From the NCBI GenBank assembly GCA_963798845.1, contig CAWCUS010000001.1, positions 192,001-256,000 of the forward strand: 64,000 nucleotides of DNA, given 5' to 3'. The stretch is from an uncultured Gemmatimonadales bacterium (GTDB taxonomy: Bacteria; Gemmatimonadota; Gemmatimonadetes; Longimicrobiales; RSA9). Positions 7,561 to 60,469 of the stretch are shown one piece after another (the stretch's first letter is position 1; each line of letters starts with the position of its first letter). The notes under the pieces were generated by a model. It had not been told where the DNA came from, did not search any database, and saw nothing but the letters and a program-made list of their open reading frames with translations. Made by a program: the position numbers and the translations under genes.

Positions 7561-8307
7561 ATGAAGAACACCAACGGAACTCCCCTCGCCCTGGACGAGC
7601 TCAGCTGGATCGACGTCGCGGCCCACCTCGCCCGCGACCCCCGGCTCATCATTCCCGTCGGCGCCCTCGAGCAGCACGGGCCACACCTGCCCCTCGGCAG
7701 CAATGTCGTCATCGCCAGGCAGTTCGCGCTCGATCTGTCCGAGGAATTCGAGGTGCTACGCGCTCCCACGTTCGCCTACGGCGTCAATGTACGGACCGAG
7801 CGCGCGTACGCAGGAACCGCGTCGCTCGGCGGCAAGACCCTGCACCGCGCCATCAATGAGCTGCTCGATGCATGGGAAACGCACGGCATCACGGAGTTTA
7901 TCCTCATCACGGCTCACCGGCACGACCCGCACCTCGATGCGCTGGCCACGCTCGTCACTACCGACGCCCGCGTCCGCGTCGTCGACATCTGGGACGTCCC
8001 CATCCACGACCTCCTCGAAGGTCAGGAGACCGCCGAGCACGCCGGCGAGGCCGAGACCTCCCTCATGCTCCACATCCACCCCGAGCTCGTCCGGATGGAC
8101 CGGGCTCGCGATTTCGAGCTCTCCCCCGAGCAGTTCCGCCGCTACATGCGCGGTGGCATGCCCGCGCCTCCTGCCGGCGGCACCGGGTGCGTCGGCCGAC
8201 CCACCCTCGCCTCCGCCGAAAAGGGCGCCCGCATCTATCTGCGCATCCTCGACGCCATCCGTCGCGCTGTCTTCGTTACCCCCGACCAGGGAACGGACAC
8301 CCTCTGA
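7561..8307 (+). CDS. Creatininase/mycofactocin MftE-like amidohydrolase family protein
   Basis: IIPVGALEQHGPHLPLG and HAGEAETS motifs. Confidence 0.88.
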   Translation: MKNTNGTPLALDELSWIDVAAHLARDPRLIIPVGALEQHGPHLPLGSNVVIARQFALDLSEEFEVLRAPTFAYGVNVRTERAYAGTASLGGKTLHRAINELLDAWETHGITEFILITAHRHDPHLDALATLVTTDARVRVVDIWDVPIHDLLEGQETAEHAGEAETSLMLHIHPELVRMDRARDFELSPEQFRRYMRGGMPAPPAGGTGCVGRPTLASAEKGARIYLRILDAIRRAVFVTPDQGTDTL

Positions 8308-8383
8308 GCGAATCCCGTCTCCGCCCCCGAACTCTCCGCCGCGGACGGGGTATCCTGAGCAGAACCAAAATGGAGAATCGCCG

Positions 8384-9070
8384 ATGATCGCTCGCATGTC
8401 CGCTGCCATCGCCCTCGCGCTCCTCGCTGCGACTGGCAACGCCCAGGCCCAGAGCCAGACCATCGACCAGGGCAGCTTCCGCCTCCTCGTGCGCGGCCAG
8501 CCCGTGGGCACCGAGACCTTCACCATCCAGCGCAAGGGCGAAGGCCCCTCCAGCGTGGTCGTGGCACAGGGACGCGTCGCTCTCGACAATGGCGACGAGA
8601 CCCGAATCCTCCTCCAGACCGACGGCCCCGACCTGCGCCCTGCCGGCTACCAGATCGAGGTCACCGGTGCCGACAAGCAGAGCATCCGCGGTCAGGTCGC
8701 AGGCAACCGGTTCCGCGCCCAGATCGTCTCCAGCGCCGGCGAGATGATGCGCGAGTATCTCACCAGCGACGGTGCCGTCATCATCGACGACGACGTGGCA
8801 CACCAGTACTACTTCCTCTCCCCCCACCTCCAGAACGGCGCCCGCGTTCCCATCATCATTCCCAGGGAAAGCAGGCAGATCTCCGCCACGATCGCCGCAG
8901 ACGGCAACGATTCCGTCGAGATCGACGGCCACCAGGTCTCCGCCCGCAAGTTCACCGTGACTCCCGCGGGCATGCCGGCGCGCACCATCTGGTTCGACGG
9001 ACAGGGCCGCGTCCTTCGCCTCAGCGTCCCCGGCCAGAACTTCGTCGCCGAGCGCACCGCGCTCCCGTGA
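8384..9070 (+). CDS. Secreted hypothetical protein (beta-rich)
   Basis: GGAGA SD, signal peptide MIARMSAAIALALLAATGNAQA, strong GC3 codon bias. Confidence 0.75.
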   Translation: MIARMSAAIALALLAATGNAQAQSQTIDQGSFRLLVRGQPVGTETFTIQRKGEGPSSVVVAQGRVALDNGDETRILLQTDGPDLRPAGYQIEVTGADKQSIRGQVAGNRFRAQIVSSAGEMMREYLTSDGAVIIDDDVAHQYYFLSPHLQNGARVPIIIPRESRQISATIAADGNDSVEIDGHQVSARKFTVTPAGMPARTIWFDGQGRVLRLSVPGQNFVAERTALP

Positions 9071-9112
9071 CTCCCGGTCATGGCACAGTGGGCGGAGCGG
9101 CCCGTGGGACCG

Positions 9113-9155
9113 TTGACAGGTTCTGAACTCTGGTGTATTAGTACGCCAACACACC
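9113..9155 (+). promoter_or_regulatory. Sigma-70 promoter with an overlapping inverted-repeat operator (YtrA/GntR-like)
   Basis: TTGACA (9113-18), 17 nt, TATTAG (9136-41). Inverted repeat GGTGTATTAG-tacg-CCAACACACC (8/10 match). Confidence 0.6.
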
Positions 9156-16338: not shown

Positions 16339-16459
16339 TGTTAGGAATATAGGGAACCGGCACCAGATATCCACGCCCGGCTCCGGGCCCACGGCGACAC
16401 CGCCGGCCTGCGGGTGACGACGCCGAAACCTACGGATCGGCGAGGGTTATTACGTTCCC

Positions 16460-17602
16460 ATGACCGAACCGCTGCTCTACCTCGACCACGCCGCGACCAC
16501 GCCGCTGAGACCGGAAGCCCGGGCGGCGATGGAGCCATTTCTGTCGGACCATTTCGCCAACCCGTCGAGCTCTCACGCTCCAGGACGGGCGGCGCGAGCG
16601 GCGTTGGAAGAGGCGCGCGAACGCGTGGCCGGGCTGCTGGGCGCCAGCGCGGACGAGGTCGTGTTCACGGGCGGCGGGACGGAAGCCGACAACCTCGCCG
16701 TCCTCGGCCGCTGGCGTGCCGGTGGTCGTGGCGTGGCGCTGTCGGGGGTGGAGCACAGCGCCGTGCGGGCGTCGGCCGCGCAGGCGGCCCGCGAAGGAGC
16801 CTCCACCTGTACGGTTGCCGTGGACGAGGACGGCCGCCTCGATGTCGCCGCGCTGGAGGAGGCGCTCGAAGAGCCTCTGTCCGTGGTTTCGGTCATGTGG
16901 GGGAACAACGAGGTGGGTGCACTGCAGCCGGTGGAACGCGTGGCGGCGCTGTGCCGGGAACGGGGCGTGGTATTCCACACCGACGCCGTGCAGGCCGTGG
17001 GGCACGTGCCCGTCTCGGTGTCGGACGTCCCGGTGGACCTGCTCGCGCTGACCGCCCACAAGTTCGGCGGCCCGCGGGGCACGGGCGTGCTCTTCATCCG
17101 GCGCGGGGTCGAGCTGGAGCCGGTGCTCCACGGCGGAGGTCAGGAGGGCGGCCTGCGGCCCGGTACATCCAACGTGGCCGGCGCCGTCGGGCTGGCCGCG
17201 GCCCTGGAGCGGGCGAGCGCGGAGCTGGCCCATGAAGCCGTCCGCCTGCGCGGGCTTCGGGACGTGTTGGAGAGCCGGATCGCCGCACGGGTCCCCGGTG
17301 TGTCGGTCAACGCCGCGGGGACCGAGCGCCTGCCGCACATCACCAGCCTTGCCGTTTCCGCCGCGGCAGCCGACGTCCTGATGGCATCGCTCGATCTTGC
17401 GGGCGTGGCGGCATTGGCGGGGTCGGCGTGCCACAGCGGCAGCGCGGCGCCCAGCCACGTGCTGGTGGCGATGGGCCGCAACCCGGAGGCGGTCGTCCGC
17501 CTTTCGCTAGGCTGGACCACGACGGAGCGGGACGTGGAGCGGGCCATCGGGATCGTCGCGGACGCGATGGAGCGCGCGCGGACCGTGGGTGCGCCGGCGT
17601 GA
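16460..17602 (+). CDS. iscS: Cysteine desulfurase (IscS/NifS group I)
   Basis: YLDHAATTP, FTGGGTEADN, HTDAVQA, AHKFGGP (PLP Lys), GSAC (catalytic Cys). Adjacent to mnmA. Confidence 0.92.
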   Translation: MTEPLLYLDHAATTPLRPEARAAMEPFLSDHFANPSSSHAPGRAARAALEEARERVAGLLGASADEVVFTGGGTEADNLAVLGRWRAGGRGVALSGVEHSAVRASAAQAAREGASTCTVAVDEDGRLDVAALEEALEEPLSVVSVMWGNNEVGALQPVERVAALCRERGVVFHTDAVQAVGHVPVSVSDVPVDLLALTAHKFGGPRGTGVLFIRRGVELEPVLHGGGQEGGLRPGTSNVAGAVGLAAALERASAELAHEAVRLRGLRDVLESRIAARVPGVSVNAAGTERLPHITSLAVSAAAADVLMASLDLAGVAALAGSACHSGSAAPSHVLVAMGRNPEAVVRLSLGWTTTERDVERAIGIVADAMERARTVGAPA

Positions 17603-18693
17603 CGCGGCTGCCCGGTCGCGGGGAGACGGTGCTCGTCGCCATGTCCGGCGGGGTCGACAGTTCCGTGGCCGCAGCGCTGCTGGTGGAGGAGGGCTACCGG
17701 GTGATCGGGGCCACGATGAAGACCTTCTGCTACGCCGAGACCCCGTCTCACGGGAAGACGTGCTGCGGGCTCGACGGGATCATGGACGCGCGGCGCGTGT
17801 CCGACCGCCTCGGAATCCCGCACTACGTCTTCGACATGGAGGAGTCGTTCGGCAGGGCGGTCATGGACGACTTCGTCGACGAGTACGCTGCGGGACGGAC
17901 GCCGAACCCGTGCGTACGGTGCAACTCCAACACCAAGATCCCCGACCTGCTCCAGCGAGGTCGTGCGCTGGGCGCCGGCTTCATCGCCACCGGTCATTAC
18001 GCCCGGATCCGGCGGGAGGACGGGGGGCCGCCCGCGCTGCTTCGAGCCCGCGACGCGGCCAAGGACCAGTCGTATTTTCTCTGGGGCCTCCCGAGGGAGG
18101 TGCTGGACGTCATCCTCTTCCCGGTCGGGATGCTGACCAAGCCGCAGGTCCGGGCGAGGGCCCGTGCCCTCGGCCTTTCCACAGCGGACAAGCCCGAGTC
18201 GCAGGAGATCTGCTTCGTCCCCACGGGCCGCTACACCGACTTCCTCGCCGACCGCCTGGGCTCGACACACCCCGCCCTGACGCCCGGGCCCATGGTGGAC
18301 GCGCGCGGGGAACGCGTGGGCGAGCACGACGGCTACGCCCGCTATACGGTGGGACAGCGAAAGGGTCTGGGCGGCGGGTTCGGTCGGAAGCTCTACGTCC
18401 TCGGCACGCGGCCGTCGACGAACGAGGTGGTGGTCGGTGGCGAGGAGGAACTGTTCCGGGACGAGGTGGCAGTGGGAGACCTGAACTGGCTGGGTTCCCC
18501 GCCGACCCACGGCGAGGCCGTTGTGGTGCGGTTGAGGCACCAGGGAGACCTCGTGGATGCGACGGTGACAGCGACCGGGAGCGCCGAGATGGTCAAGCTC
18601 CGCCTCGGTGAGCCCCAGCGAGCGATCACGCCAGGGCAGTCGGCCGCGGTGTACCGGGGCGAGGTTCTCGTGGGCGGTGGGCGGATCCGGTAG
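17599..18693 (+). CDS. mnmA: tRNA 2-thiouridine(34) synthase
   Basis: AMSGGVDSSV, TPNPCVRCN, ATGHYA, KDQSYFL, ESQEICF, YTVGQRKG, PGQSA. Confidence 0.96.
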   Translation: MTRLPGRGETVLVAMSGGVDSSVAAALLVEEGYRVIGATMKTFCYAETPSHGKTCCGLDGIMDARRVSDRLGIPHYVFDMEESFGRAVMDDFVDEYAAGRTPNPCVRCNSNTKIPDLLQRGRALGAGFIATGHYARIRREDGGPPALLRARDAAKDQSYFLWGLPREVLDVILFPVGMLTKPQVRARARALGLSTADKPESQEICFVPTGRYTDFLADRLGSTHPALTPGPMVDARGERVGEHDGYARYTVGQRKGLGGGFGRKLYVLGTRPSTNEVVVGGEEELFRDEVAVGDLNWLGSPPTHGEAVVVRLRHQGDLVDATVTATGSAEMVKLRLGEPQRAITPGQSAAVYRGEVLVGGGRIR

Positions 18694-18708
18694 CCCGGCA
18701 TGGATCGC

Positions 18709-18942
18709 TCAGGAAACGTCGTGTGCCTGCCGCAGCAGCGTCCGGAGCTCGTCCTTCGACGCCCGCTCCACCTCGCGCTCCACCTCGGCCGTCGCTCCGT
18801 CCCTCGCCAGCGCGCGGGGCCGCCGGCTCCGATCGGAGAGGCAGAGGAACACGATCTCGGTGTGCTGCGGGAATCCATTCTCGCCGGAAGAAGGAAAGGC
18901 CTCCCAGAGGAGCAGGTCATCGTCCTGGATGATTCGGCTCAT
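18709..18942 (-). CDS. Small hypothetical protein (77 aa)
   Basis: Fills the gap directly after dnaJ on the same strand; normal composition and codon bias. Confidence 0.7.
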   Translation of the reverse strand: MSRIIQDDDLLLWEAFPSSGENGFPQHTEIVFLCLSDRSRRPRALARDGATAEVEREVERASKDELRTLLRQAHDVS

Positions 18943-18947
18943 GGCAT

Positions 18948-20069
18948 TCAGTAACGGAGCTCCGCGGCTTCCGCGAACTCCCGCATCAGCCGCTGCTCGT
19001 TCTCGTTCAGCGTTTCCGGCACCGTGATCTTCACCTGCACGTACTGGTCGCCTCGCTTCCCGTTCCGCTCGATTCCCTGCCGCGGGATTCGGAACTTGGT
19101 CCCGGATTGGGTACCCGGTGGAATCCGAAGCGAGACCTTCTTACCGTCCACGGTTCGCACCCGGATCTTGGACCCGAGCGCCGCCTGGGCGATGTTGACG
19201 GGGACCGTGCAGTGTACGTCGAGTCCCTTCCGGCGGAAAAACCGGTGGGGCTGAACCTGGAACGTGATCAGCAGGTCGCCGGCCGGGCCGCCGCCGCTGC
19301 CCCGTTCCCCCTGGCCGGACAGGCGGAGCTTCGATCCGGTGTCGACCCCCGCGGGCACTTTCAGCCGGATCTGCCGCTCCTGGCGTAGCTGCCCGCTGCC
19401 GCCGCACGCGTGGCACGGCTGCGCGGGGATGTGCCCGCGACCGTAGCACGCCGGACATGGCCGATTCACGGCGAAGCCGCCCTGGCCGAAGGATATCGTG
19501 CCCGAGCCGCCACATTCAGAGCAGACCGTCATGCGGGTGCCCGGCTCCGCACCCGACCCGCCGCAGATGGTGCACTCCTCGGTGACCGGGACAGTGATCG
19601 CAATGGCGCCCCCGCGGGCCGCGGTCTCGAAGGAGATCTCGACGGTGAACTCGACGTCCGCACCCCGCTCCGGGCCGCCACGGGGTTTCCGCTTGCGGCC
19701 GAAGTCGAAGATGGAGCTGAACAGATCGCCCAGGCCGCCGATGTCGCCCAGATCGTCCATCGTGAAGCGGACTCCGCCGCCGCCGGGCTGTCCGGCGAAG
19801 CCGCCGGTCCCGCCGGCTGCACCGCCGAAACCGGAGAACGGTCCCATCCGCCGCATTTGGTCGTACTGCGCCCGCTTCTCCGCGTTGGAGAGGACGGCGT
19901 ACGCCTCACCGATCTCCTTGAAGCGCTCGGCTGCGCGTGGATCGTTCTGGTTCGCGTCCGGATGGTACTGTTTGGCGAGCTTCCGGTACGCCTTCTTGAT
20001 CTCGCCGGCGTCCGCCTTCTCCGAGACTCCCAGGATCTGGTAGTAGTCCTTCGAGGTCGCCGTGGGCAT
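18948..20069 (-). CDS. dnaJ: Molecular chaperone DnaJ
   Basis: J-domain with HPD, G/F-rich region, four CxxCxGxG repeats, C-terminal domain. Confidence 0.97.
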
Positions 20070-20075
20070 GCCGCG

Positions 20076-20672
20076 TCAGCCGCTCCCCTCTGCGGACTCG
20101 TCGTACTGGTGAACCCGGACGCGGGCCGGGCGAATCAGCACGTCGCGGAACCGGTAGCCGGGCTGCAACACGTCGGCCACGCGTCCGTCCTCGGCGGGGT
20201 CGTCGGTCGGGATCGCCATGAGCGCCTCCATGACTTCAGGGTCGAACGGCTGCCCCAGGGCCTGGACGCGCTCGAGCCCGGCGGATTCCAGCACCGATAC
20301 GAACTTCTTTTCCACCAGGCGAACACCTTCCGCGAGGGAGTCGACGGTCGTCCGGGGTCCGGTCTCCTCCACCCGCTGAAGGTCGTCGATCACGTCCAGC
20401 AACCCGCTCACGAGGTCCGCCTGGAGCCGTGCCGCCATCAGCTGCCGCTCGCGCTCGTTGCGCTTCCTGTAATTGTCGAACTCGGCGGCGAGGCGGAGGT
20501 GGCGATCGTTCATCGCCTCGAGCTCTCCACGCAGCTCATCCATCTCGACGGCCACGTCGTTCGTGGCCACGGCGTCCTGGGCGGCCACGTCTCCGGCGTC
20601 CGAAGGCGGGGCGGACGCCTGCGGCTCGTCGGCGGCGGCGGACCGATCTCGTCTCTTATGTTCCGTCATCAT
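20076..20672 (-). CDS. grpE: Nucleotide exchange factor GrpE
   Basis: RLAAEFDNYRKR, FDPEVMEA, QPGYRFRDVLIRPARV. Confidence 0.96.
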   Translation of the reverse strand: MMTEHKRRDRSAAADEPQASAPPSDAGDVAAQDAVATNDVAVEMDELRGELEAMNDRHLRLAAEFDNYRKRNERERQLMAARLQADLVSGLLDVIDDLQRVEETGPRTTVDSLAEGVRLVEKKFVSVLESAGLERVQALGQPFDPEVMEALMAIPTDDPAEDGRVADVLQPGYRFRDVLIRPARVRVHQYDESAEGSG

Positions 20673-20716
20673 CTCGTCAGCTTGGTTGGCAGGCGCAGCT
20701 TCGCGCCGTTCTCGGG

Positions 20717-20754
20717 TGCAATCGGGATGCCGCGGGCGACTGCCGCATTGGCAG
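20717..20754 (-). promoter_or_regulatory. Putative sigma-54 promoter of grpE-dnaJ with an upstream palindrome
   Basis: Minus strand CGGCATCCCGATTGCA (GG-N10-GC with TTGCA). CTGCC-N5-GGCAG inverted repeat at 20740-20754. Confidence 0.55.
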
Positions 20755-20759
20755 CCCGC

Positions 20760-21608
20760 TCACTCCAGCCTGTCCGTGATCCAGTCGCGGATCTCGCCCA
20801 GGACCGCGCCCCGTCCCCGCTCCTGGATGACTTCATGATACATCGCCGGGAGGACGTCCACGCTCACGTTGTCCGACGGGAGGGAGCGGGCGAAGGCGAT
20901 GCTGCGCTCGGCGTCCACGACCTTGTCATCGCCGGCGATGATGAAATGGGCCGGGATGGAAATGCGGTCGCCGCGTCGCAGGGCGAGCTCGATGGCGGAC
21001 GCCGTCTCGGTGAACAGTCGCGGCGTGATGGTGGAGTGGATCTGCGCATCGTCCCGGTAATCGGCGGCGCGCTCCTCGTCGTGGGTGAGCAGCCCGGGAT
21101 CGAGGTGGAACGGGAACGGGAACGCCGGGAGCGTCCGGTTGAGAACGCCGGCGAGGATGGACTGCCAGGGGGGAACCGGGACGGCGGTGCCGAGCCACGG
21201 GGACGTGATGACGGCACCGGCGAGCGGAGACTCATACTCCTCCAGGTATCGCACCGAGATGAGCCCACCGAGGGAGTGGCCGACGAGGAAGAGTGGCGTT
21301 TCCACCGGGAGCAGGCCCTGCACTTCACGGCGGAACCGGTCGAGATCCTGGAGGAATATGTCGAACCTGCGCACGTGGCCCCGCCGCCCCTCGGAGGCGC
21401 CGTGGCCGCGCAGGTCCATGGAGAAGCTGGACAGGGCGTATCCCGCCATGTAGTCCCCGAACTCCTCGTAGCGGCGGCTGTGCTCGAACAGGCCGTGCAC
21501 CACGATCAGGCCGGCGAGGGGCTCGTCCGCTTCCCACGTGCGATAGTGGAGCCGAAGTCGACCCACGCCCTCGAAATAGCCGTGATTCATGCGTGCCGTG
21601 ATGCTCAT
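20760..21608 (-). CDS. Alpha/beta hydrolase (lysophospholipase/monoglyceride lipase-like)
   Basis: VHGLFEHSRRY, DLRGHGASEG, GHSLGG nucleophile, DDKVVD, YHEV. Confidence 0.92.
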   Translation of the reverse strand: MSITARMNHGYFEGVGRLRLHYRTWEADEPLAGLIVVHGLFEHSRRYEEFGDYMAGYALSSFSMDLRGHGASEGRRGHVRRFDIFLQDLDRFRREVQGLLPVETPLFLVGHSLGGLISVRYLEEYESPLAGAVITSPWLGTAVPVPPWQSILAGVLNRTLPAFPFPFHLDPGLLTHDEERAADYRDDAQIHSTITPRLFTETASAIELALRRGDRISIPAHFIIAGDDKVVDAERSIAFARSLPSDNVSVDVLPAMYHEVIQERGRGAVLGEIRDWITDRLE

Positions 21609-22084
21609 TCCGCGTCCTCCAGGAGGTGCCAAAGGACCTCGAGAGCCGCGCGCACGGACTCGGTCCGGACGCGGGCTCGATCCCCGTCGAAGTGGAACCG
21701 GCGAGCGACCTCGCGCCCCCGGAGCGCGGCGGCGATCCAGACCGTGCCCACGGGCTTGTCCGAAGTGCCGCCGCCGGGACCCGCCACACCCGTCACCGCC
21801 ACCGCCGCATCCGCCATGCCGACCCTGAGCGCCCCCGCCACCATTTCCCGGGCGACGGCCTCGGAGACTGCGCCGTGCGCGGACAGGGTGGTTCGGTGCA
21901 CGCCCAGGATCCGTTCCTTGGCGTCGTTCGCGTACGCGACGACGCCCGCCACCAGGAATTCCGAGGCACCGGCCCGGTCCGTGAGGGCCGCGGCCACCAT
22001 CCCGCCGGTGCAGCTCTCGGCGAGCGCGAGCCGGAGTCCCTTCTGCGCGAGGGACCGGGAAACGCTCCCGACCAGGTCCGTCAT
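21605..22084 (-). CDS. cinA: CinA C-terminal domain protein (NMN deamidase PncC-like)
   Basis: AESCTGG, GAVSEAVAREM, TGVAGPGGG, KPVGTVW. Confidence 0.9.
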   Translation of the reverse strand: MTDLVGSVSRSLAQKGLRLALAESCTGGMVAAALTDRAGASEFLVAGVVAYANDAKERILGVHRTTLSAHGAVSEAVAREMVAGALRVGMADAAVAVTGVAGPGGGTSDKPVGTVWIAAALRGREVARRFHFDGDRARVRTESVRAALEVLWHLLEDAE

Positions 22085-22731
22085 GGCCGCGTCGCCCCCG
22101 GCCTGCTCCAGCTCCACAGGTAGACAGCCATGGAGAACACGGTGAGGATGATGGCGATGAGGAGCGACAGCGCGAGCACCGGTCCGTGCAGAAGCCCGCG
22201 CCACAACTCCCAGAACCGCCCCGTCCAGCCGTGCGCCTGGGCGGCGGCGACCAGGGCGTACCAGAGCACTGCGGAGCCGCTGAAGATGTTCTGGAACACG
22301 GCTTTGTACTTCCCCGCCTTCCCCGCCGGAATGACTCGCCCCCGCTGCGCGGCCACCTGCCGGACGATCGTGATCAGGAGCTCCCGACCGAAGATGACGG
22401 CCAGGACCCAGAGGGGGAGGGCGCCCCAGTACGGGAGCGCGTTGAGGGGGCCGGGGCGATGGGAAAGGATGTAGAATGGGATGAAGGTCACGACGAGCAG
22501 CAGCTTGTCGGCCACCGGGTCCATGAGCTTCCCGAAATTCGAGATCCACCCATACTTCCTGGCCAGGTAGCCGTCCCAGAGGTCGGACACGGCGGCGGCG
22601 AGGAAGAGGAGGAAGGCGATGAAGCGGGGCCAGAAGCCGTCGGCGAGGATCAGGAAGAAGACGGCTGGCGCGACCAGGATCCGGCCCACCGTGATGACAT
22701 TGGGGATCGTGCGAGCACGGAGGATGGCCAT
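22081..22731 (-). CDS. pgsA: CDP-diacylglycerol--glycerol-3-phosphate phosphatidyltransferase
   Basis: PNVITVGR, DLWDGYLARK, FGKLMDPVADK. Confidence 0.9.
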   Translation of the reverse strand: MAILRARTIPNVITVGRILVAPAVFFLILADGFWPRFIAFLLFLAAAVSDLWDGYLARKYGWISNFGKLMDPVADKLLLVVTFIPFYILSHRPGPLNALPYWGALPLWVLAVIFGRELLITIVRQVAAQRGRVIPAGKAGKYKAVFQNIFSGSAVLWYALVAAAQAHGWTGRFWELWRGLLHGPVLALSLLIAIILTVFSMAVYLWSWSRPGATRP

Positions 22732-22738
22732 GATCGGG

Positions 22739-23317
22739 TCACCCCAGCCTCTCGAAGACCCGCTTGCTTACACCCCGGAGCGTCTCGAACACGCCGGTCC
22801 CGAGGCTGGCCACGGCCTCGAACTCCTGGAGACCTCCCGGATTCAGCTGGGCGTGGAGCTCTTCCAGCGGCAGCCGGCTCGGGAGGTCCCGCTTGTTGTA
22901 CTGGATCACCGTGGGCAGGTGCTGCGTGTCGTAGCCGTATTCGGACAGGTGCTCGTAGAGGTTCTGCATGGAGGCGAGATTCGCGTCCATGCGCTCGGGT
23001 CCGGAGTCGGCCACGAACACGACCCCGTCGACGTTCTTGAGGATTAGCCGTCGACTCGCGTTGTAGTACACCTGGCCGGGCACGGTGTAGAGGTGAAACC
23101 GGGTCTTGAACCCGCGGATGGTACCGAGAGCGACGGGCAGGAAATCGAAGAAGAGGGTCCGCTCGTTGTCCGTCGCGAGGGAGATGAGGCGCCCCCTCGT
23201 CTCCGGATTCACGGTCTGGTAGACGTATTCGAGATTGGTGGTCTTGCCGCCGAGGCCGGGACCGAAATACACGATCTTGCAGTTGATCTCGCGGCTGGCG
23301 TAGTTGATCACGGGCAT
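22739..23317 (-). CDS. mglA: MglA small Ras-like GTPase
   Basis: [34 protein letters not shown]. Confidence 0.93.
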
Positions 23318-23330
23318 GTTCCGCGCCCCC

Positions 23331-23819
23331 TCACCCGGCGAACAGCCGATCGATCTCGCCGAGCGCGTCCTGTGCGAATCCCGGCTGGAGCGTCGGCCGT
23401 TCCTGCGGCCGTGCCGCGGCTTCGTGGAGGACATCCTCGAGCTGCGGCACAACCTGCCGGATCTGGACCCGGACCGTGCCGTGCGTGGTGCCGCCGTCGA
23501 AGATCGTGGCCAGGATGGCCGCGCCAGCGACGTTGGAGAGGAACATGGACCCGTTCACGCCGCGGTGGTACAGCGAGGCGAACTCCCGCTCGCCGAGCAC
23601 GCCGGCGAGCTGGTCGCTGGCGTCGAAATCGGCGGCCGCCAGAACGGCGAAGCTGATGACGTCGAGGTGGCCGACATCGCCGGCGGTGGTGACGGCCCGC
23701 CCCGATCGGTCGAGGAGGAGCGCACAGCGGGCGCCGGCTTCGGCGACGAACGCGTGGAGCAGACGGTGCAGGCGTTCGAGGTCGTCGGAATCGAGCGCGG
23801 CTATCGGGTCAGAGCTCAT
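23331..23819 (-). CDS. mglB: MglB roadblock/LC7 domain GAP
   Basis: ALLLDRSG...[13 protein letters not shown]...GTVR; lies directly upstream of mglA. Confidence 0.85.
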
Positions 23820-24137
23820 CCGGCAGCCTCGCCGGAGAGAGCCTCCCGAGCTCGAAGGCTCCGCTCCAGCTTGTCCCGCACCTGCTCCGCGCGGCGGCGG
23901 ACCAGCGGCTGGCGTTCCCAGGCGATGTAGTCACGAAGGAGGCGCAGCGAGTCCACCGTGGGCTCGCTCCCGGCGATGTAGCCCAGGGCCGCCAGCCGCC
24001 GCAGCGGTCGACTGCTGAAGAGGTCTCTGCGGTGCCGCGACATTCTGGTTCCGCAGGAAGAGCACGCCGAGCACCGAAGCGGCGGCGGTGGCGATGAGCG
24101 CGATTCCCGTGATGCGAAGGACCTGCTTCATTCTCAT
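23816..24137 (-). pseudogene. Small membrane protein split by a +1 frameshift at about 24044 (possibly a sequencing error)
   Basis: The TM ORF (MRMKQVLRITGIALIATAAASVLGVLFLRNQ) and the ORF MSRHRRDLFS... join in frame if one A is removed from CAG-A-ATG. Confidence 0.7.
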
Positions 24138-24140
24138 CCG

Positions 24141-24743
24141 TCAAAGCTCCCGTCGTCCGGACAGCGCCTCCGCAATGGTGACCCCGTCGGCGTACTCGAG
24201 GTCGCCGCCGACCGGGAGGCCGCGAGCCAGGCGCGTCACCCGCACCCCAGCGGGGCGGACCAGCTTCTGGAGGTAGAGCGCGGTGGCCTCGCCTTCCACG
24301 CTGGGGTTCGTGGCTATGATCAACTCCTGCACGGCGACGCCGGTCTCCCCGCCGGCATCGAGGCGCCGGAGCAGTCGGTCGATGTTCAGCTCCTCGGGGC
24401 CGACACCATCGAGGGGCGAGAGACGTCCACCGAGGACATGGTAAAGCCCGCGGTATTCGCCGGTTCGCTCGATCGCCCCGATGTCGGCGGCCTCCTCCAC
24501 GACGCAGATCACGGACGGATCCCGTCTGGAGTCGGTGCACAGCTCGCAGGGATCGGCTTCGGTGAGATTACCGCATCGGGAGCATTCGCGCACGCGCTCG
24601 GCCACGGCCTGGATGGCGTGGGCCAGCCGGCGGCTCTCCTCGGGACTGCGCTTCAGGAGGAAGAAGGTGAGGCGGAGCGCCGTCTTCCGTCCTATGCCGG
24701 GAAGACGCGACAGCTCGGTCGTGAGCTCGTCGATGACACCCAT
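24141..24743 (-). CDS. recR: Recombination mediator RecR
   Basis: LPGIGRKTA, C4 zinc finger, YHVLGGRLSPLDG, TNPSVEGEATA, LARGLPVGGDLEYAD. Confidence 0.97.
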   Translation of the reverse strand: MGVIDELTTELSRLPGIGRKTALRLTFFLLKRSPEESRRLAHAIQAVAERVRECSRCGNLTEADPCELCTDSRRDPSVICVVEEAADIGAIERTGEYRGLYHVLGGRLSPLDGVGPEELNIDRLLRRLDAGGETGVAVQELIIATNPSVEGEATALYLQKLVRPAGVRVTRLARGLPVGGDLEYADGVTIAEALSGRREL

Positions 24744-24748
24744 TCGCC

Positions 24749-25072
24749 TCAGGGCAGATTCGGCAGCTGGAACGGGAGCGGAAGTCCGCCGGTGAGCTTC
24801 TTGAGCTCTTCCTCATAGAGGCCGCGCGCACGCTGCTGGGCGTCGGAAACGGCCGCGAGGACGAGGTCTTCGAGCATCTCGACGTCGGTGGAGTCCACCA
24901 CGGACGGGTCGATCTTCACCTCCCGGACCCGGCCCTGCCCATCGGCCGTGACCGTCACCATCCCACCGCCGCTGCTGCCGGAGATCTTGTGCTTGCCGAG
25001 CTCCGACTGGAGCTCGGAGAAACGGGCCTGCATTTGCTGGCCCATCTGTAGAATCTGCTGAAAATTCGTCAT
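24749..25072 (-). CDS. ybaB: YbaB/EbfC nucleoid-associated protein
   Basis: GSSGGGMVTV, DVEMLEDLVLAAV; located between dnaX and recR. Confidence 0.93.
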   Translation of the reverse strand: MTNFQQILQMGQQMQARFSELQSELGKHKISGSSGGGMVTVTADGQGRVREVKIDPSVVDSTDVEMLEDLVLAAVSDAQQRARGLYEEELKKLTGGLPLPFQLPNLP

Positions 25073-25097
25073 GAAATTCGCCCGAAGATAGCGGCCG

Positions 25098-26864: not shown

Positions 26865-26955
26865 CGGGGCTCGGGCGATCCCGGGGCACGTTGGAACAGG
26901 TGCGAGGCGCGCGCCTTGCGAGTGCCTTCACGCGGCGAGCGCGAGTAAAGAAAAT

Positions 26956-27051
26956 GCCCCAGGCGAACCGCAGCGGCGTCCGCGTCACTTACCGCTGCTA
27001 CCTTCACGGTCCTGACGGGTTTCGCGAGCTCGCGCCCTGCGGGCCTGGGGC
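26956..27051 (-). ncRNA. ffs: Signal recognition particle RNA (4.5S)
   Basis: Terminal stem GCCCCAGGC/GCCTGGGGC and helix-8 motif TCAGGACCGTGAAGGTAGCAGC. TACGTT -10 at 27058-63. Usual position upstream of dnaX. Confidence 0.93.
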
Positions 27052-27129
27052 GAAAGGAACGTAACGGCAGGGGAGTCGGGGTTCAACCCCGTCCGGACCT
27101 TCGGACGGGAGTCGCAACGGAGGCACGGG

Positions 27130-27579: not shown

Positions 27580-27596
27580 CAACAACGGAGGTGAGC

Positions 27597-27812: not shown

Positions 27813-27822
27813 GGGCGGCGGC

Positions 27823-28255: not shown

Positions 28256-29296
28256 TCAGGCCGGGAGCTCGATGGTCGGGGCCATGCGCCGGCCGATCGC
28301 CTCGGCGATGATGCGGGCCTGCTCCATCAGCTCGTCGAACTGAGCCGGGAAAAGCGACTGCGCCCCGTCGGAGATCGCATGGTCCGGATCGGGGTGGACC
28401 TCGACCATCAGGCCGTCCGCGCCGGCTGCGACCGCGGCCCGGGCCATGGGCACGACCTTGGCCCTCAGCCCCGTCCCGTGGCTCGGGTCTGCGATGATCG
28501 GCAAGTGCGACAGGGATTTCACCACGGGGATGGCGGTGAGGTCGAGCAGGTTGCGCGTGTGGGTGTCGAAGCTGCGCACCCCGCGCTCGCACAGGATCAC
28601 GTTCGGATTGCCCTCGCTCACCACGTACTCGGCGGCGAGGAGCAGTTCCTTGATGGTGGCAGCGAGGCCGCGTTTCAGAAGCACCGGCTTACCCACACGG
28701 CCGGCACGGCGCAGCAGCGGATAGTTCTGCATGTTCCGGGCGCCGATCTGCACGATGTCGGCGTGCTCGGCCACGAGGTCGACCATGTCGGGCTCGAGGG
28801 CTTCGGTGACCACGGCGAGGCCGGTCTCTTCGCGGGCGAGGGCCAGGAGCCGGAGGCCGGGCTCGCCGAGCCCCTGGAAGGCATACGGCAATGTGCGCGG
28901 CTTGAAGGCGCCGCCACGGAGCACGGTGGCGCCTGCGGCGCGCACCTGGCGGGCGGCGGTGAGGATCTGGCTTTCCGACTCGACGGCGCACGGGCCGGCG
29001 ATGACCACGACCTCGTCGCCGCCGATGCGGGTGCCGTTGCTCAGCTCGATGATGGTGGGCTCGTCGCGCCATTCCCGCGAGACCTGCTTGTACGGCTGGG
29101 TCACCTGGATGACCTGCTGCACGCCCGGTAGCGCCTCGAGGCGGTCGCTGTCCACCCGGCCATCGTTGCCGACGAGCCCCACGGCGGTGCGCTGCTTGCC
29201 CGGGATCGGTCGGGCTTCGTAGCCCATCTCCTCGATGGTGTGGACGACGCGGCGGACATCCTCGTCCGGGGCCCCGTGATTCATCACGACGAGCAT
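28256..29296 (-). CDS. aroF: 3-deoxy-7-phosphoheptulonate synthase (type I-beta, N-terminal regulatory domain)
   Basis: [55 protein letters not shown]. Confidence 0.96.
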
Positions 29297-35358: not shown

Positions 35359-35760
35359 TCAGGACTCCAGCGTCAGGAGCGGGGCGTCTCCCCAGAGACG
35401 CTCGAGCTGGTAGAAGTCGCGCGCAACAGGATGGAAGACGTGCACGACGAAATCGATGTAGTCGATGAGCACCCAGCGTCCGCCGCGCAGACCCTCCACG
35501 TGGTCCGGCCGCACATCCTCCCGCTTGAGTCCCTCAATGATGCCCTCGGCGATGCTGCGCACGTGGATGTCCAATGTGCCGGTCGCGATCACGAAAAAGT
35601 CGGTGGCGCCGGTGAGGTCCCGGAGATCGAGGACCGAGAGCTGCCGGGCCTTCCGGTCGCGGGCGAAATCCACCACCCGGGAGAGGTCACGGGTCAGGTC
35701 GGACTCCGAGAGCGTGCGCTGAGGTTTAGCCGCGGATGCGTGACTACGTTCGGTCGCCAT
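35359..35760 (-). CDS. rsfS: Ribosome silencing factor RsfS
   Basis: DFFVIATG, WVLIDYIDFVVHVF, RDFYQLERLWGD. Confidence 0.95.
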   Translation of the reverse strand: MATERSHASAAKPQRTLSESDLTRDLSRVVDFARDRKARQLSVLDLRDLTGATDFFVIATGTLDIHVRSIAEGIIEGLKREDVRPDHVEGLRGGRWVLIDYIDFVVHVFHPVARDFYQLERLWGDAPLLTLES

Positions 35761-49972: not shown

Positions 49973-52179
49973 GCCGACAGTTGCCGGCCGGGCTCGAAGA
50001 GGTCGGCATGAAGGAGGCGGTGGGCTACGCCACGATCGCCTGCCGTGGCGAGTCGGGGCTCGGGAACTCGCTGACGCTGAAGCAGGATCGTCTCTTCCTG
50101 GTGGCCGCCGAGCGGGGCGACATCGCGCCGCCGGGGCACTGCGGGTCCGGGCTGTTCCAGGATGATACGCGGTTCCTGAGCCATTACGCGCTTCGGGTGT
50201 CCGGCGGGACTGCATCACTGCTGTCGTCGCACGCGGGGTCCACCTACAGCGCGCAGATCGATCTGGCGGTGACGGACCGGGAGTTCGGGGGCGAGGATCC
50301 ACGGGCCAACCGCAACAGCGTGCACATCCGGCGAGAGATGGTGCTGAGCGACAGGCTGACGGAGCGCGTGACGCTGACCAACTACCTGACTCACGCCATA
50401 GACTACTGGGTCGAGCTCGCCACGGGAGTCGATTTCGCCGACATCTTCGAGGTGCGCGGCTGGCACAGGGACGTCCGCGGCCAGTTCTACGCACCGGTCG
50501 CCGGGCCGGAGGGGATCGACTACTGGTACAGAGGCACGGATGGCCTGCTGCTCCGGACTCGCGTTCGTTTCGCGACGGCACCCGACGCTGCCGGTCCGCA
50601 CGTTTCCCGATGGACGATGCGACTGGAGCCGGGGGAACCCCGGTCGCTGGAATGGGAGGTCCTCCCGGGTTTCGACCCTGACGACCGCACCGCGCAGCTG
50701 GGCGGGGACCTCGACGCCCGCGTCGCGCCGCTCGCCCGAAGCTACGACCGCTGGCGTGACGAGTGCACGCTGTGGCACAGCAATGTCGAAGCGTTCAACG
50801 CGACCGTCGACCAGGCCGTGGTCGACCTTCGCGCACTCTACGTGGAGGCGGACGGAACCGAGGTGATCTCGGCGGGCATCCCGTGGTACTCCACCGCGTT
50901 CGGCCGGGACTCGATCATCACGTCCTTGCAGACCCTTTCCGTCAACCCCCGCATCGCCTACGACACGCTCCGCTACCTCGCTCTATATCAGGGCGAACGG
51001 GAGGATGATTTCACGGAGGAGCAGCCGGGCCGGATCATGCACGAGATCCGGCGCGGCGAGATGGCCCGCAGCGGCGAGATCCCTCACGTCCCCTACTACG
51101 GCACTGTCAATGCGACGCCGCTCTGGCTCATTCTGCTGCACGAGACCTGGCGGTGGACCGGCAACGCCGAACTCGTGCGAGACCTGCTTCCCCAGGCCCG
51201 CCGGGCGCTCGACTGGATCGACCGCTACGGCGACCTCGATGGGGACGGACTCGTGGAATACGCCGGTCAGGCCGGCAAGGGGCTCGTCAACCAGGGATGG
51301 AAGGACTCCGGGGATGGCGTGCCCTTCCCGGACGGCACGCTCCCGGAGCCCCCGATCGCGCTGGTCGAGGTGCAGGGATACGTCCACGACGCCAAGGTGA
51401 GGACGGCGCAGCTTTTCGAGGCCTTCGGTCAGCAGGACGATGCGGACCGGGTGCGCGAGGAAGCGGCGGCGCTCCGCGACCGGATCCTGGCCCTATTCTG
51501 GGTGGAGGAACTGGGCACGTTCGCGCTGGCGCTGGATGGCCAGAAGCGACCCGTGCCCACCGTGACGAGCAACGCAGGGCACCTGCTCTGGAGCCGGGTT
51601 CCCACGCCGGAGCAGGCCACCCGCATGGCCCAGCTGTTCGGGGGCCCCGACATGTTCTCGGGATGGGGACTCCGGACGCTGAGCGCGGCGCACCCCGTGT
51701 TCAACCCGATGAGCTATCACAACGGCTCGATCTGGCCGCACGACAACGCGCTCGTCGGCCTGGGGCTCTCCCTGAGCGGGCACAAGAGCAGCGCGCTCCG
51801 CATCCTCACGGCGCTGCACCAGGCCGCCACCGGGCTCCGCTATCACCGGCTCCCCGAGCTGTTCTGCGGCATGGACCGCGGCCACGGCGAGGGTCCCGTC
51901 CTCTACCCCGTCAGCTGCTCTCCGCAGGCCTGGGCCGCCGGATCCCTGTTCATGCTGCTCCAGGCGGCGACCGGGATCCTGCCGGACGGCCCGGCCGGCG
52001 AGCTGCACATCCGGGACCCGCTTCTTCCCCTCTTCCTCGACACCCTTACGGTCACCGGGCTCCACGTCGGCCGCTCCCGCGTGACGCTCCAGTTCAGACG
52101 ACGGGGATCACGGACGCTCGCGAACCTGCTGGCCGTCGAGGGCGACCCGCTCCAGGTGAGGATCGAGCTGTCCAGCTGA
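49969..52179 (+). CDS. Amylo-alpha-1,6-glucosidase/glycogen debranching-like protein (GH133 with N-terminal domain)
   Basis: DFADIFEVRG, AGIPWYSTAFGRDS, NQGWKDSGD, YHNGSIWPHDN, LPELFCG, CSPQAWA. ATGA overlap with the GT4 gene. Confidence 0.92.
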   Translation: MSRQLPAGLEEVGMKEAVGYATIACRGESGLGNSLTLKQDRLFLVAAERGDIAPPGHCGSGLFQDDTRFLSHYALRVSGGTASLLSSHAGSTYSAQIDLAVTDREFGGEDPRANRNSVHIRREMVLSDRLTERVTLTNYLTHAIDYWVELATGVDFADIFEVRGWHRDVRGQFYAPVAGPEGIDYWYRGTDGLLLRTRVRFATAPDAAGPHVSRWTMRLEPGEPRSLEWEVLPGFDPDDRTAQLGGDLDARVAPLARSYDRWRDECTLWHSNVEAFNATVDQAVVDLRALYVEADGTEVISAGIPWYSTAFGRDSIITSLQTLSVNPRIAYDTLRYLALYQGEREDDFTEEQPGRIMHEIRRGEMARSGEIPHVPYYGTVNATPLWLILLHETWRWTGNAELVRDLLPQARRALDWIDRYGDLDGDGLVEYAGQAGKGLVNQGWKDSGDGVPFPDGTLPEPPIALVEVQGYVHDAKVRTAQLFEAFGQQDDADRVREEAAALRDRILALFWVEELGTFALALDGQKRPVPTVTSNAGHLLWSRVPTPEQATRMAQLFGGPDMFSGWGLRTLSAAHPVFNPMSYHNGSIWPHDNALVGLGLSLSGHKSSALRILTALHQAATGLRYHRLPELFCGMDRGHGEGPVLYPVSCSPQAWAAGSLFMLLQAATGILPDGPAGELHIRDPLLPLFLDTLTVTGLHVGRSRVTLQFRRRGSRTLANLLAVEGDPLQVRIELSS

Positions 52180-57073: not shown

Positions 57074-57811
57074 TCAGCAATGACTCGACGGACGCGCGGC
57101 GGCAATGAGCGCCTTCATCTCACGGACGGCCGCCTCAATGCCGGTGAATACCGCGCGGCTGATCACGCTATGGCCAATGTTCAGCTCTTCCACCTCTTCG
57201 ATTCCGGCCACGGCGGCGGAGTTCTCGTACGTGAGCCCGTGACCGGCGTGCACGTCCAGCCCCAGCGAGCGACCGAGCGCCGCCGCACGACGCAGCCGGT
57301 CCAGCTCCGCGGATGCTCCCCGCCCCGGACGCCAGGCGTTGGCATACTCGCCCGTGTGCAGCTCGACGGCATCCACGCCCAGCTCCGCGGCACGCCGCAG
57401 CGTATCCGGATCCGGATCCACGAAGAGCGAGGAGCGGACGCAGGCCTCGCGCAGCCGCTCCAGCGCCGCCGCGAGACGGCTCGTGTCACCGGCGAGTGAC
57501 AGACCGCCCTCCGTCGTGACCTCCTCGCGACGCTCCGGCACCAGCGTCGCCGCCATCGGCTTCAACTCCTGGGCGAGCGCCACCATCTCGTCCGTCCCGG
57601 CCATCTCCAGGTTGACTCCGGTGCGCGCCGTTTCCATGAGCAGCCGCACGTCCCGATCCTGGATGTGGCGGCGGTCCTCGCGCAGGTGCACCGTGATCCC
57701 GTCCGCGCCGCCGAGCTCGGCCAGGACCGCGGCACGCACCGGGTCCGGCTCGTTCGTGCGACGGGCCTGCCGGACCGTGGCCACATGGTCAATGTTGATG
57801 TGGAGGCGCAT
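57074..57811 (-). CDS. pdxJ: Pyridoxine 5'-phosphate synthase
   Basis: [43 protein letters not shown]. Confidence 0.97.
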
Positions 57812-58680
57812 TACTCGCCCAGGAGTGCTTCCAGCTGCTCCGCCCGCTCAGGATCGAGCCCGGCGCCGCGGGCGAGCTGAAGGGTTTCCAGCCCGACCGC
57901 GCAATATAGGCGTCGCTCCCGTCCCGACAACCGGGACAGGTGCAGCCTCACGGTGTCCAGGTCGCCCCGAGCCACCGGCCCGGTGAGGGCAGCGCCGAAG
58001 CCAAGCTGCTCCACGTTGTCCATGGTGCCGCGCATGAGTGGGAGCGCGGCGGCCACGGCCTCATCCTCGGGGATTCCCGCCTCCGCGAGCGTGCGGGCCA
58101 CCACGGCCGCCGCGGCCAGCACGTAATTGGAGGCGAAAACCGCCGCTGCATGGTACAGCGGGCGGAGCGTCGGCGGGATGACCAGGGCCCGCCCTTGCAG
58201 CGCATCCACGACCCGGCGGGCGGCCGTCAGGGCCGCGGGCTCCCCGGCCACCGCGTACGCGCACCCGACAAGGCGGTCGGCGCCGGACCACGGGTCCGCG
58301 ACGGTCTGCAACGGGTGGATGGAGCCCACCGTGTACCCGGCGGCGTGGAGCGGGGCGAGGACGTCCGTGGAGAGCGCGCCGGAAAGGTGGAGCGCCGCGC
58401 AACCGCCTGGGTGCGGACCGCCGAGCGCCACCTGGTTCGCCACCTCCGGCAGTGCGTCGTCGGGCACCGCCAGCAGGAGCACCGTGGTGTTGTCGGGCAC
58501 CGGACCGTACCCCATGCGGTACGACACGTGCTCGGCCGCGCCGTCGAAGAGCGGGTGCGGCGGCGCCTCCGGGGAGCGACCGAAGAAGACCAGGCTTTCC
58601 GCTTCCCGGGCATGATTCAGCGCCACCCCCAGCGCCAGGCCCATGCGGCCCGGCCCCACCACCGCAATCCGCTCGCTCAT
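57811..58680 (-). CDS. Rossmann-like/DUF2520 oxidoreductase (PanG-like ketopantoate reductase candidate)
   Basis: [43 protein letters not shown]. Confidence 0.88.
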
Positions 58681-59975
58681 GCCGCCCCGTTGATCTGGAT
58701 CCCTTCGCGCTGGCGGAGCCGCCCCAGCGTTGGCTGCGGGATCCTGGCTCGCAGGTCGATGATCGTTCCGCGCTCCTCCCGGCTGATCACCTCTCCCTCC
58801 CGGTACACCGTGGCCAGGCTCTCGCCGTCGGCGGCCGGGATCAGCAGCTGCACTTCCGGCCGCTGGCTCCGTACCTGGCCCTCCAGCAGCTCGACGATCT
58901 CCCGCAGGCCGTCGCGCTCCACCGTGGAGGTGAAGACCGCCGGCTCGGCGAACATCGCCCGCGCGTTGGCCCGCAGCGCGGCCTCCTCGTCGTGCGTGAG
59001 CTGATCGACCTTGTTGAACACGAGGGCGAGGGGGACGTCATCGAGATCGAGATCGGTGAGGACGCCCTCCACCACCGTCTTCTGCTCCTCCCAGCGCGGG
59101 TGTGAGCCGTCAATGACGTGGAGCAGGACGTCGGCCTCCGAGGCCTCTTCCAGGGTAGCGCGGAACGACGCGACCAGGTGGTGTGGCAGCTTGCGGATGA
59201 AGCCGACCGTGTCCGTCACCAGCACCTTCGACCCCATGGGCAGCTCCACCTGCCGCGTGGCCGGATCGAGGGTGGCGAACAGCCGGTCCTCGATGAACAG
59301 CTCCGCACCCGAGAGCGACCTCAGCAGGCTGGATTTCCCCGCGTTCGTGTATCCGACCAGCGCCGCCTGGAACTCGCCCGACCGCCCCTTCCGCTGCGTC
59401 GCGCGGCGGCGTGCCACGATCTCCAGCTTGTCCCGCAGGTCGCTGATCCGCCGGCTGATGATCCGACGGTCGGTCTCCAGCTGCGTCTCGCCAGGACCTC
59501 GCAACCCGATTCCACCCCGGATCCGCGACAGGTGGGTCCACATCCGCTTGAGACGCGGGAGCAGGTACTCGAGCTGCGCCAGCTCCACCTGGAGCTGCGC
59601 CTCGTTCGTCCTTGCCCGCGTGGCGAAGATGTCCAGGATCAGCTCCGTCCTGTCCATGATCCGGACGTCCAGGAGGTCCTCCAGATTCTTGCCCTGCGCC
59701 GGCGTCAGCTCGTCGTCGAAGATCACGAGCGTCGCGCCACGGTCCCGCACCACCTGGCCCAGCTGCTTCGCCTTCCCTTCCCCGATGAAGTACCGCGGGT
59801 GCGGCGCCGAGAGCCTCTGGATCAGCACGGCTACGACGCTGGCGCCGGCCGTGTCGCTGAGCCGACCCAGCTCTTCCAGGTGCTCGTCCGCCTGCTCAGG
59901 CGATACTCCCGCCGTCGGTGCCCCCACCAGCACCGCGCACTCCTCAGGCGTTTCGAGCGAGATGATCTCTCTTAT
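58677..59975 (-). CDS. hflX: GTPase HflX (start probably ATA at 59975; alternative TTG at 59990)
   Basis: ILDIFATRA, GPGETQLETDRR, GYTNAGKSS, LFATLD, DTVGFI, NKVD. Confidence 0.95.
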   Translation of the reverse strand: MREIISLETPEECAVLVGAPTAGVSPEQADEHLEELGRLSDTAGASVVAVLIQRLSAPHPRYFIGEGKAKQLGQVVRDRGATLVIFDDELTPAQGKNLEDLLDVRIMDRTELILDIFATRARTNEAQLQVELAQLEYLLPRLKRMWTHLSRIRGGIGLRGPGETQLETDRRIISRRISDLRDKLEIVARRRATQRKGRSGEFQAALVGYTNAGKSSLLRSLSGAELFIEDRLFATLDPATRQVELPMGSKVLVTDTVGFIRKLPHHLVASFRATLEEASEADVLLHVIDGSHPRWEEQKTVVEGVLTDLDLDDVPLALVFNKVDQLTHDEEAALRANARAMFAEPAVFTSTVERDGLREIVELLEGQVRSQRPEVQLLIPAADGESLATVYREGEVISREERGTIIDLRARIPQPTLGRLRQREGIQINGAA

Positions 59976-59997
59976 GGATGCCTCCTCCAAATGACCG

Positions 59998-60469
59998 TCA
60001 TCGGACTTCGGCCTGCGTCACCGTGCCCACGTGCCGGAAGTCCAGATCTCGCCGGACCGGCACCGTCACGGAAACCGTGCCACTCACGCGATAATCGAAC
60101 GCACCCCGGTCGAGCAGGGCGCGTGCGGCCTGGCTCATGCCTTTGTAGGTGAAATTCACCGGCACCGCCACCTCGACGGTGTCGCCGGCGGGCACAGCCA
60201 GGTCGCGATCGATCTGCCCGTCCGTAAAGGGCGACCAGCTTTTCGTGTCCGGCGCCTGGAGCTCGAGCTTGTAGCGCACGCCGTCCGCTTTCAGATCGAA
60301 ATCGTTGGGGTTGTAGATCCCGAGCTGCACGTTCATGATGCCGCCGTTCAGCCCCAGCGACGACAACTGCACTCCGGCCAGCCAGAATGCGGGGCTGCTG
60401 AACCTTCGGCACACACGCACCGAGCATGACCAGCAGCGCGGCCGCCGTGGCCCTGGACCCCACCCGCAA
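59998..60469 (-). pseudogene. LEA type 2 (WHy) lipoprotein split by a +1 frameshift at about 60386 (possibly a sequencing error)
   Basis: GGAGG SD before TTG; lipobox LGAC. VPKVQQPRI joins WLAGVQLSSLGL...YNPNDFDL if one T is removed from ATT-C-TGG. Confidence 0.75.

Follow-up and report, generated by a model that had tools for sequence, protein, structure and literature searches.

Why should genes in a 64,000-nucleotide stretch of an uncultured Gemmatimonadales bacterium (GenBank GCA_963798845.1, contig CAWCUS010000001.1; positions 192,001 to 256,000, here called the window, G000:C1:192001-256000) carry frameshifts and odd residues at one and the same short word, with CATC written as CATT? 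A first-pass annotation of the window listed seven such lesions, two +1 frameshifts and five substitutions, and took them as the footprint of a DNA modification at CATC/GATG. Comparison of this genome (G000; 4.26 Mb, six contigs, 70% GC) with that of a sister species (G001), both ~96% complete, suggests that the frameshifts and the Ser-to-Leu and Asp-to-Asn changes are long-read consensus errors at CATC sites, triggered by a DNA modification and of a type known from Nanopore R10.4.1 data, a reading to which we give a probability of about 0.6. Its parts differ in strength: the lesions are very probably consensus errors and not mutations, a modification of some kind is the likely trigger, and N6-methyladenine (6mA) made by an orphan D12-class methylase is named as that trigger only tentatively, at somewhat under even odds.

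All 14 strings quoted by the first-pass annotation were present in the window, at the places quoted or 1-2 bases off, and a Pfam search confirmed the gene families of the quoted sites (Table 1). One strand shows RCATTG at all five claimed substitutions, and RCATTCTGG is the word at both frameshifts. Four of the substitutions, and thus six of the seven lesions, hold. Leu replaces a Ser found in 11/11 relatives in the DAHP synthase motif (KPRT-L-PY) and in 10/10 relatives in that of RsfS (GT-L-D), with TCG as the G001 codon at both, in RsfS within an identical context (gcacaTCGgacat). At the corresponding position of the IscS-like AA-L-AGSAC, seven of eight distinct genomes have Ser, one has Ala and none has Leu, while the Asn of YYGTV-N-AT in the glycogen-debranching-type glycosidase faces Asp in 6/6 rows at >=55% identity. 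The creatininase substitution was rejected as a lesion, since G(S/T)N is present in 12/12 same-family orthologues and Asp only in three distant homologues (31-40% identity); the Asn of HLPLG(S/T)N is a lineage-wide change at what had been supposed a conserved Asp. A further candidate at 11990 (AAT versus GAT in G001) was also discarded, as it lies in a variable column where D, N, E, Q and A all occur.

As annotated, both +1 frameshifts lie in the same 8-mer (CATTCTGG or its reverse complement, CCAGAATG) and are repaired by restoring CATCTGG, each having one extra T that is absent from G001. At the first site, G000 GCGACATTCTGG aligns with G001 GCGACAT-CTGG, and two frames are needed to match the G001 protein, one over 24140-24045 and the other over 24046-23819, with the switch at 24045/24046; a Pfam search of both halves of the split gene gave no family match. 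At the second, G001 CCCCGGAT-CTGGCTGG faces G000 CCCCGCATTCTGGCTGG (in a further rendering, CCCCGGAT-CTGG versus CCCCGCATTCTGG), with no other gap over the 426 bases aligned. Closing it joins a lipoprotein signal peptide with the LEA_2 domain (PF03168, E=1.7e-11) of a LEA_2 lipoprotein gene (59998-60486 plus the upstream frame). Logan contigs of three public runs were aligned to window positions 16401-36400, and one contig of run X1 omits a base at 24043 (depth 2/2), the sole indel row in that interval. An apparent frameshift at 27043 was rejected as an artefact of stop-to-stop open reading frames (ORFs) overlapping a divergent gene. In runs X1 and X2 there are also contigs that jump from 19290 straight to 29005, leaving out 9714 bases, with a match of only 23 letters on their shorter side; the jump is probably due to a short word that the two places have in common, or to a different organism, rather than to a deletion.

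Table 1 Window lesions, related sites and candidate methylase genes (window positions unless a contig is named).
Feature	Position	Strand	Gene or context
CATTCTGG, extra T	24041..24048	-	Splits small gene, ~107 aa in G001, window 23819-24140
CCAGAATG, extra base	60382..60389	-	Between lipoprotein signal peptide and LEA_2 domain
TTG (Leu) in GCATTGG	17414..17416	+	Class-V aminotransferase (IscS/NifS-like), PF00266 E=6e-71
TTG (Leu) in ACATTG	28889..28891	-	KPRT-S-PY of DAHP synthase (AroF), PF00793 E=9e-76
TTG (Leu) in ACATTG	35572..35574	-	GT-S-D of RsfS, PF02410 E=8e-29
AAT (Asn) in CAATG	51109..51111	+	YYG(S/T)V-D-AT of glycogen-debranching-type glycosidase (GDE/GH133), GDE_N_bis PF14742 E=1.5e-45
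AAT (Asn), lineage residue	7702..7704	+	Creatininase-family gene (window 7561-8304), PF02633 E=1.3e-52
Silent C·ATT·G codon, example	57790..57793	-	G001 reads CGATG
TAATG stop/start overlap	57809..57813	-	G001 TGATG (CATCA on + strand)
Orphan D12-class adenine methylase	G000 C2:213658-214731	-	358 aa, divergent; PF02086 93.7 bits
Eco57I/N6_Mtase/MmeI-type ORF	G000 C6 ~412.9-416.5 kb		1198 codons stop-to-stop; NPPW motif, common to G001

The same word stands out genome-wide when 460 kb of G001 (~90,000 aligned codons) are compared with G000, all codon counts being based on a home-made gene caller or on an ORF filter using third-position G+C (GC3). Single-base TCG/TTG (Ser/Leu) differences number 13, with Leu in G000 in seven and in G001 in six, and CA precedes nine of the 13 Leu codons, as against 585 of 20939 TCG codons (2.8%; binomial p=7e-12). 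Opposite a G001 Ser, G000 has TTG at 7/40 positions after CA and 2/1130 elsewhere (odds ratio (OR) 120, p=1e-9); in the reverse direction the counts are 5/46 and 3/1085 (p=5e-6). In the two genomes GA·TTG (dots mark codon boundaries) was seen opposite Ser zero times and once. The single-base Ser/Leu pairs hold one GA·TTG versus nine CA·TTG despite similar GATCG opportunities. Asp-to-Asn changes in G000 follow suit (C·AAT·G 10/155 versus 6/562 elsewhere, p=4e-4). A tblastn comparison gave one in-frame TGA in CATTGA opposite G001 CATCGA and another in GATTGA (opposite CGA). Outside the window, at G000:C1:335335-335340, G000 CATTGAGATGC (with an in-frame TGA) faces G001 CATCGAAATGC; both genomes have a lesion of this kind here, at places three bases from one another. 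Pooled C/T differences between G000 and G001 gave no usable signal, being swamped by real divergence, and a scan for unique deviations across every relative in a 20-kb syntenic block, of low power, returned no other CATTG Ser-to-Leu change.

For the insertions, a frameshift census scored only sites with strong coding signal on both flanks, a filter that left both window sites unscored. Frame switches were found at nine of 34 scorable CATTCTGG sites (85 sites in all) and at six of 24 scorable CATTCTG[ACT] sites (94 in all), as against none at CATCTGG (535 sites, 275 scorable), GATTCTGG (63 and 23) or CATTCCGG (160 and 58) and one at CATTC[ACG]GG (272 and 94); for CATTCTGG versus controls, Fisher p=8e-10. 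From these counts CATTCTG(G) is therefore a recurrent +1 site.

Coding constraint is ignored in both genomes. The Ser-to-Leu share at CA·TCG is 17.5% (7/40) in G000 and 10.9% (5/46) in G001, not below the share of silent C·ATT·G codons with an Ile partner (65/609, 10.7%, and 79/646, 12.2%), for which the G·ATT·G counterpart is 1.6% and 1.5%. The lesions are very probably consensus errors because the changes ignore selection, strike invariant residues, differ between the sister genomes, and are absent from G001 and, at the one site covered, from a short-read contig. The rival view that they are real (pseudogenes, damaging alleles fixed in the population or programmed +1 frameshifts) is hardly credible. 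The changes do stand in the deposited sequence, and the contig that speaks against them is of low depth, but invariant residues of several housekeeping genes would have to be struck within 64 kb, with amino-acid-changing sites affected as often as silent ones; moreover, the lesions of this type in G001 form a set distinct from that of G000, the extra base is missing from the X1 contig, and the shift sites are not conserved, G001 having the unshifted word at both.

The first-pass annotation had placed the responsible methyltransferase outside the window, and D12 and Eco57I-like methylase genes were indeed found on contigs C2 and C6. Two genes were returned by a PF02086 (D12-class) search of G000. 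The orphan D12 gene encodes DPFSG and DPPY motifs, shares 90% identity with a syntenic G001 gene, and is flanked by a TonB-like gene and a KDO-transferase gene in an arrangement kept in G001 and G006. The inspected loci (L138, G000:C2:212410-216225; L208, G006:C117:1978-5661), like that of G001, have it divergent to the KDO-transferase gene. Orthologues were found in G002, G003, G004, G006, G007, G008, G010 and G011, and not in G005, G009, G012, G013-G016 or G018-G020; G012 does have the KDO transferase, with an aminopeptidase (PF10023) gene where the methylase would stand. The Eco57I-like ORF shows weak similarity to PglX of BREX systems. DPPY and NPPW motifs are typical of adenine methylases. 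The G001 copy of the Eco57I-like gene (L135/L139, G001:C4:261374-265600) departs from that of G000 (L134/L140, G000:C6:412600-416601) near the C-terminus, as if frameshifted. Near the C6 end, a Dam-family methylase gene (L136, G000:C6:1354343-1358074; TIGR00571, 228 bits) lies immediately upstream of a gene for a DndB/DpdB-like DGQHR-domain protein (TIGR03187, E=4e-33). This K-rich pair looks acquired, and its methylase was seen in G000 only, with no D12 match at the corresponding place in G001.

The annotation's preferred route, through a modified cytosine, is without an enzyme because neither PF00145 (C5 methylases) nor PF01555 (the N4/N6 beta class) was matched in G000 or G001, PF00145 being matched in 9/14 control genomes. 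What stands of its interpretation is the single word (CATC to CATT), a recurrence far beyond chance and the reading as consensus errors; the cytosine route falls, as does an argument from TAATG stop/start overlaps. These are not enriched genome-wide (11 TAATG among 206 T[AG]ATG overlaps versus 116 TAA among 2589 TAA plus TGA stops). The overlap at 57809-57813 fits a CATC-to-CATT change, although it is silent and unprovable, and that at 37499-503 does not fit the CATC pattern and is unalignable with G001 in that respect. Many CATC sites remain intact, as had been noted: the window holds 659 CATC, 136 CATT, 236 CATCG and 58 CATTG.

A bias towards Ile ATT codons after C had been put forward as part of the error footprint. 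It is true and sharper than claimed: ATT makes up 775/9659 of ATT plus ATC in C·ATT·G and 140/9398 in G·ATT·G, with 2.5-2.8% after A or T. Over ~18,700 sites the CATTG share is 13.3%, versus 6.8% for GATTG. Observed/expected ratios are 1.36 for CATTG, 0.80 for GATTG and 1.06 for CATCG; CATTG was not among the top outliers when 4- to 6-mers were scanned with a maximal-order Markov model. When T-share after C was compared with that after G over 61-64 contexts (codon family by next base), ATY·G came out as the top outlier for G000 (OR 4.1, p=2e-75), for G001 (OR 6.5, p=4e-21) and for the remaining D12-positive relatives taken together (OR 4.1, p=1.7e-14), and lay outside the top six contexts in the D12-negative pool. 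C·ATT·G exceeds G·ATT·G in the D12-positive pool without G000 and G001 (111/1428 versus 44/1834; OR 3.4, p=9e-13) and not in the D12-negative pool (99/1759 versus 97/1845; OR 1.07), with per-genome OR of 1.5-6.9 and 0.33-1.65, respectively; the negative pool includes 20 kb of the unpublished G014, on which no claim rests. G005, the closest relative outside the genus by identity, is without the bias (18/419 versus 11/307). An uninformative comparison, with 100 kb each, was that of G017, which has a weak (37%) D12 homologue, with its congener G015, in which none was found (ATY·G OR 1.72 versus 1.63).

The D12-positive relatives tested (G003, G006, G007, G008 and G010) are free of lesions. In them Ser-to-Leu changes at CA are 0/25 and Asp-to-Asn changes at C_G stand at background level (4/171 versus 11/590 elsewhere), yet the silent CATTG excess is present (32/434 versus 14/579). 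The ATT-after-C bias thus occurs in relatives free of lesions too; it is therefore for the most part a real feature of the lineage and cannot alone prove errors. That the silent excess is a genuine evolutionary footprint and not an assembly error, genera with the orphan D12 gene mutating CATCG to CATTG or preferring CATTG several-fold more than genera that lack it, is improbable as matters stand; if true, either the mutational trace of an adenine-class methylase would lie two bases away from the base it targets, or a D12-like enzyme would act on cytosine, and in G000 and G001 the Nanopore basecaller would stumble at this site as well.

Consensus errors of a similar kind have been described. 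The passages of Liu et al. (2024, PMC11610603) report strand-specific C2T/G2A errors in R10.4.1 assemblies that are lost in amplified DNA, at motifs including G6mATC and C6mATCTC, and those of Lohde et al. (2024, PMC11610573) report ambiguous positions, R or Y, that have RA/TY as the minimal pattern shared over 32 species and are removed by polymerase chain reaction (PCR) kits. The lesions here resemble these in being transitions only, C-to-T on one strand and G-to-A immediately 5' of an A on the other, in a short word, with a fraction of sites flipped, and all confirmed substitutions obey the RA/TY rule in its RA form (CATCG to CATTG, or CGATG to CAATG). They differ in that the published passages give substitutions and mention no such insertion as the one seen here, where the word is CATCG/CGATG and is accompanied by a recurrent +1 insertion at CATCTG(G). 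A second parallel is MhoVII of Mycoplasma hominis, which makes 6mA in GATG and CATC, the latter by a D12-class enzyme (PMC12898733). Compared by description, both cases have the asymmetric four-base GATG/CATC word (6mA in MhoVII) and a D12-class enzyme; MhoVII, as described there, is a fusion of two methylases (YhdJ-type and D12) with a nuclease, whereas the D12 enzyme here stands alone, with no PF01555 gene in G000 or G001 as second methylase for the other strand and no nuclease beside it, the neighbours being the TonB-like and KDO-transferase genes. No paper that names a GATG/CATC motif for this phylum came up in a non-exhaustive literature search.

Together, we infer the sequencing platform, the modification, its type and the responsible enzyme. 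N6-methyladenine in (C)GATG, made by the D12 enzyme common to both genomes, would be the best-fitting trigger because of the RA/TY pattern, the MhoVII precedent and the presence of the D12 gene. A G immediately 5' of the modified A would be taken for A, and the C opposite it for T, as in the RA/TY ambiguity. CATCG is written CATTG (CGATG written CAATG on the other strand) and CATCTG(G) is written CATTCTG(G) at ~3-15% of such sites in G000 and its sister species. The orphan D12 methylase would be the best candidate enzyme and the Eco57I/PglX-like methylase the second.

The modification could be dispensed with if CATCG and CATCTG were simply hard words for basecaller or polisher in very GC-rich DNA and the silent excess an unrelated codon-context habit. 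On this account, which we consider unlikely, it is readily understood that a minority of sites is affected with no longer motif, that the errors are alike in two species, as expected of a technical bias, and that the silent CATTG excess, needing no errors, already exists in lesion-free relatives; PMC11610603 also dismisses as a false positive a weak SATS-type signal seen in P. aeruginosa, which is GC-rich. However, the published C2T/G2A errors vanish in amplified DNA (99% correct; same source) and PCR kits cut ambiguous positions from 2357 to 44 (PMC11610573), and in our data GATCG is barely affected compared with CATCG and two adenine methylases are common to both genomes.

Slightly less probable is methylation of the second C of CATCG (N4-methylcytosine or 5-methylcytosine), the route first proposed; true C-to-T hypermutation would then affect silent positions throughout the lineage, and in the two long-read genomes the C would also be miscalled as T. 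It offers a single cause for the silent-only excess in D12-positive relatives and the lesions of G000 and G001, and agrees with the over-representation of CATTG and not of GATTG; such motifs, too, yield R10.4.1 errors in the passages of PMC11610603. Against it are the missing PF00145 and PF01555 families in two nearly complete genomes, the adenine-type DPPY or NPPW motifs of the methylases that were found, and the fact that CATCG is undepleted. Methylcytosine deamination creates mutational hot spots, as in Dcm-type CCWGG to CTWGG changes. The likeness is that C-to-T changes at silent sites are in excess at a single word and that, among relatives, this excess goes with the presence of a methylase gene; the difference is that no cytosine methylase family is found here and that amino-acid-changing sites are also affected in G000 and G001.

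Several points weigh against modification-triggered consensus errors, or against the D12 enzyme as their source. Methylation by the D12 enzyme leaves the silent CATTG excess of the lesion-free D12-positive relatives unexplained, and MhoVII requires for GATG a second, PF01555-type enzyme, which was not found in G000 or G001. The orphan D12 protein, whose specificity for this word is putative, has no PDB relative and scores only 20.5 bits with TIGR00571; the call of its absence from G005 and G009 is weak, since the neighbouring KDO transferase was not found there either. Asp-to-Asn changes at C·AAT·G are not enriched in G001 (4/217 versus 12/688; also 7/283 versus 14/837), few CAT·TGN codons face Arg (1/29 and 0/28), and the lesion-like stop in GATTGA lies outside CATTGA; a census of in-frame TGA codons passed one GATTGA and no CATTGA read-through candidate above its thresholds. 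Beyond CATC(G) there is no flanking specificity (base frequencies at -9 to +11 are near-equal for CATT and CATC, both overall and for in-frame C·ATT·G), and a minority of sites is affected. The public-run contigs independently checked one of the four sites within 16401-36400, no contig row being present at 17415, 28890 or 35573 among the 24 of 301 pieces listed, and the X1 contig, at depth 2, could stem from another strain. The codon log-odds gene caller is crude, and related genomes are non-independent samples.

The lesions are thus most likely an already known kind of assembly artefact, and the broken genes are not truly broken. G000 and G001 each probably carry about a thousand wrong bases at CATCG and, at CATTCTG(G), false frameshifts that may number a dozen or more, and an apparent pseudogene or unusual active-site residue that coincides with one of these words should not be given a biological meaning; CATTG or CATTCTGG can be flagged wherever relatives show CATCG or CATCTGG. 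The error word probably marks a methylated site and would serve as a cheap pointer to a probable methylation motif, and the analysis brings with it a candidate orphan adenine methylase conserved across several genera of an uncultured lineage. The mildly novel point is that the silent CATTG excess tracks the D12 gene in relatives free of lesions, a link that merits a proper test.

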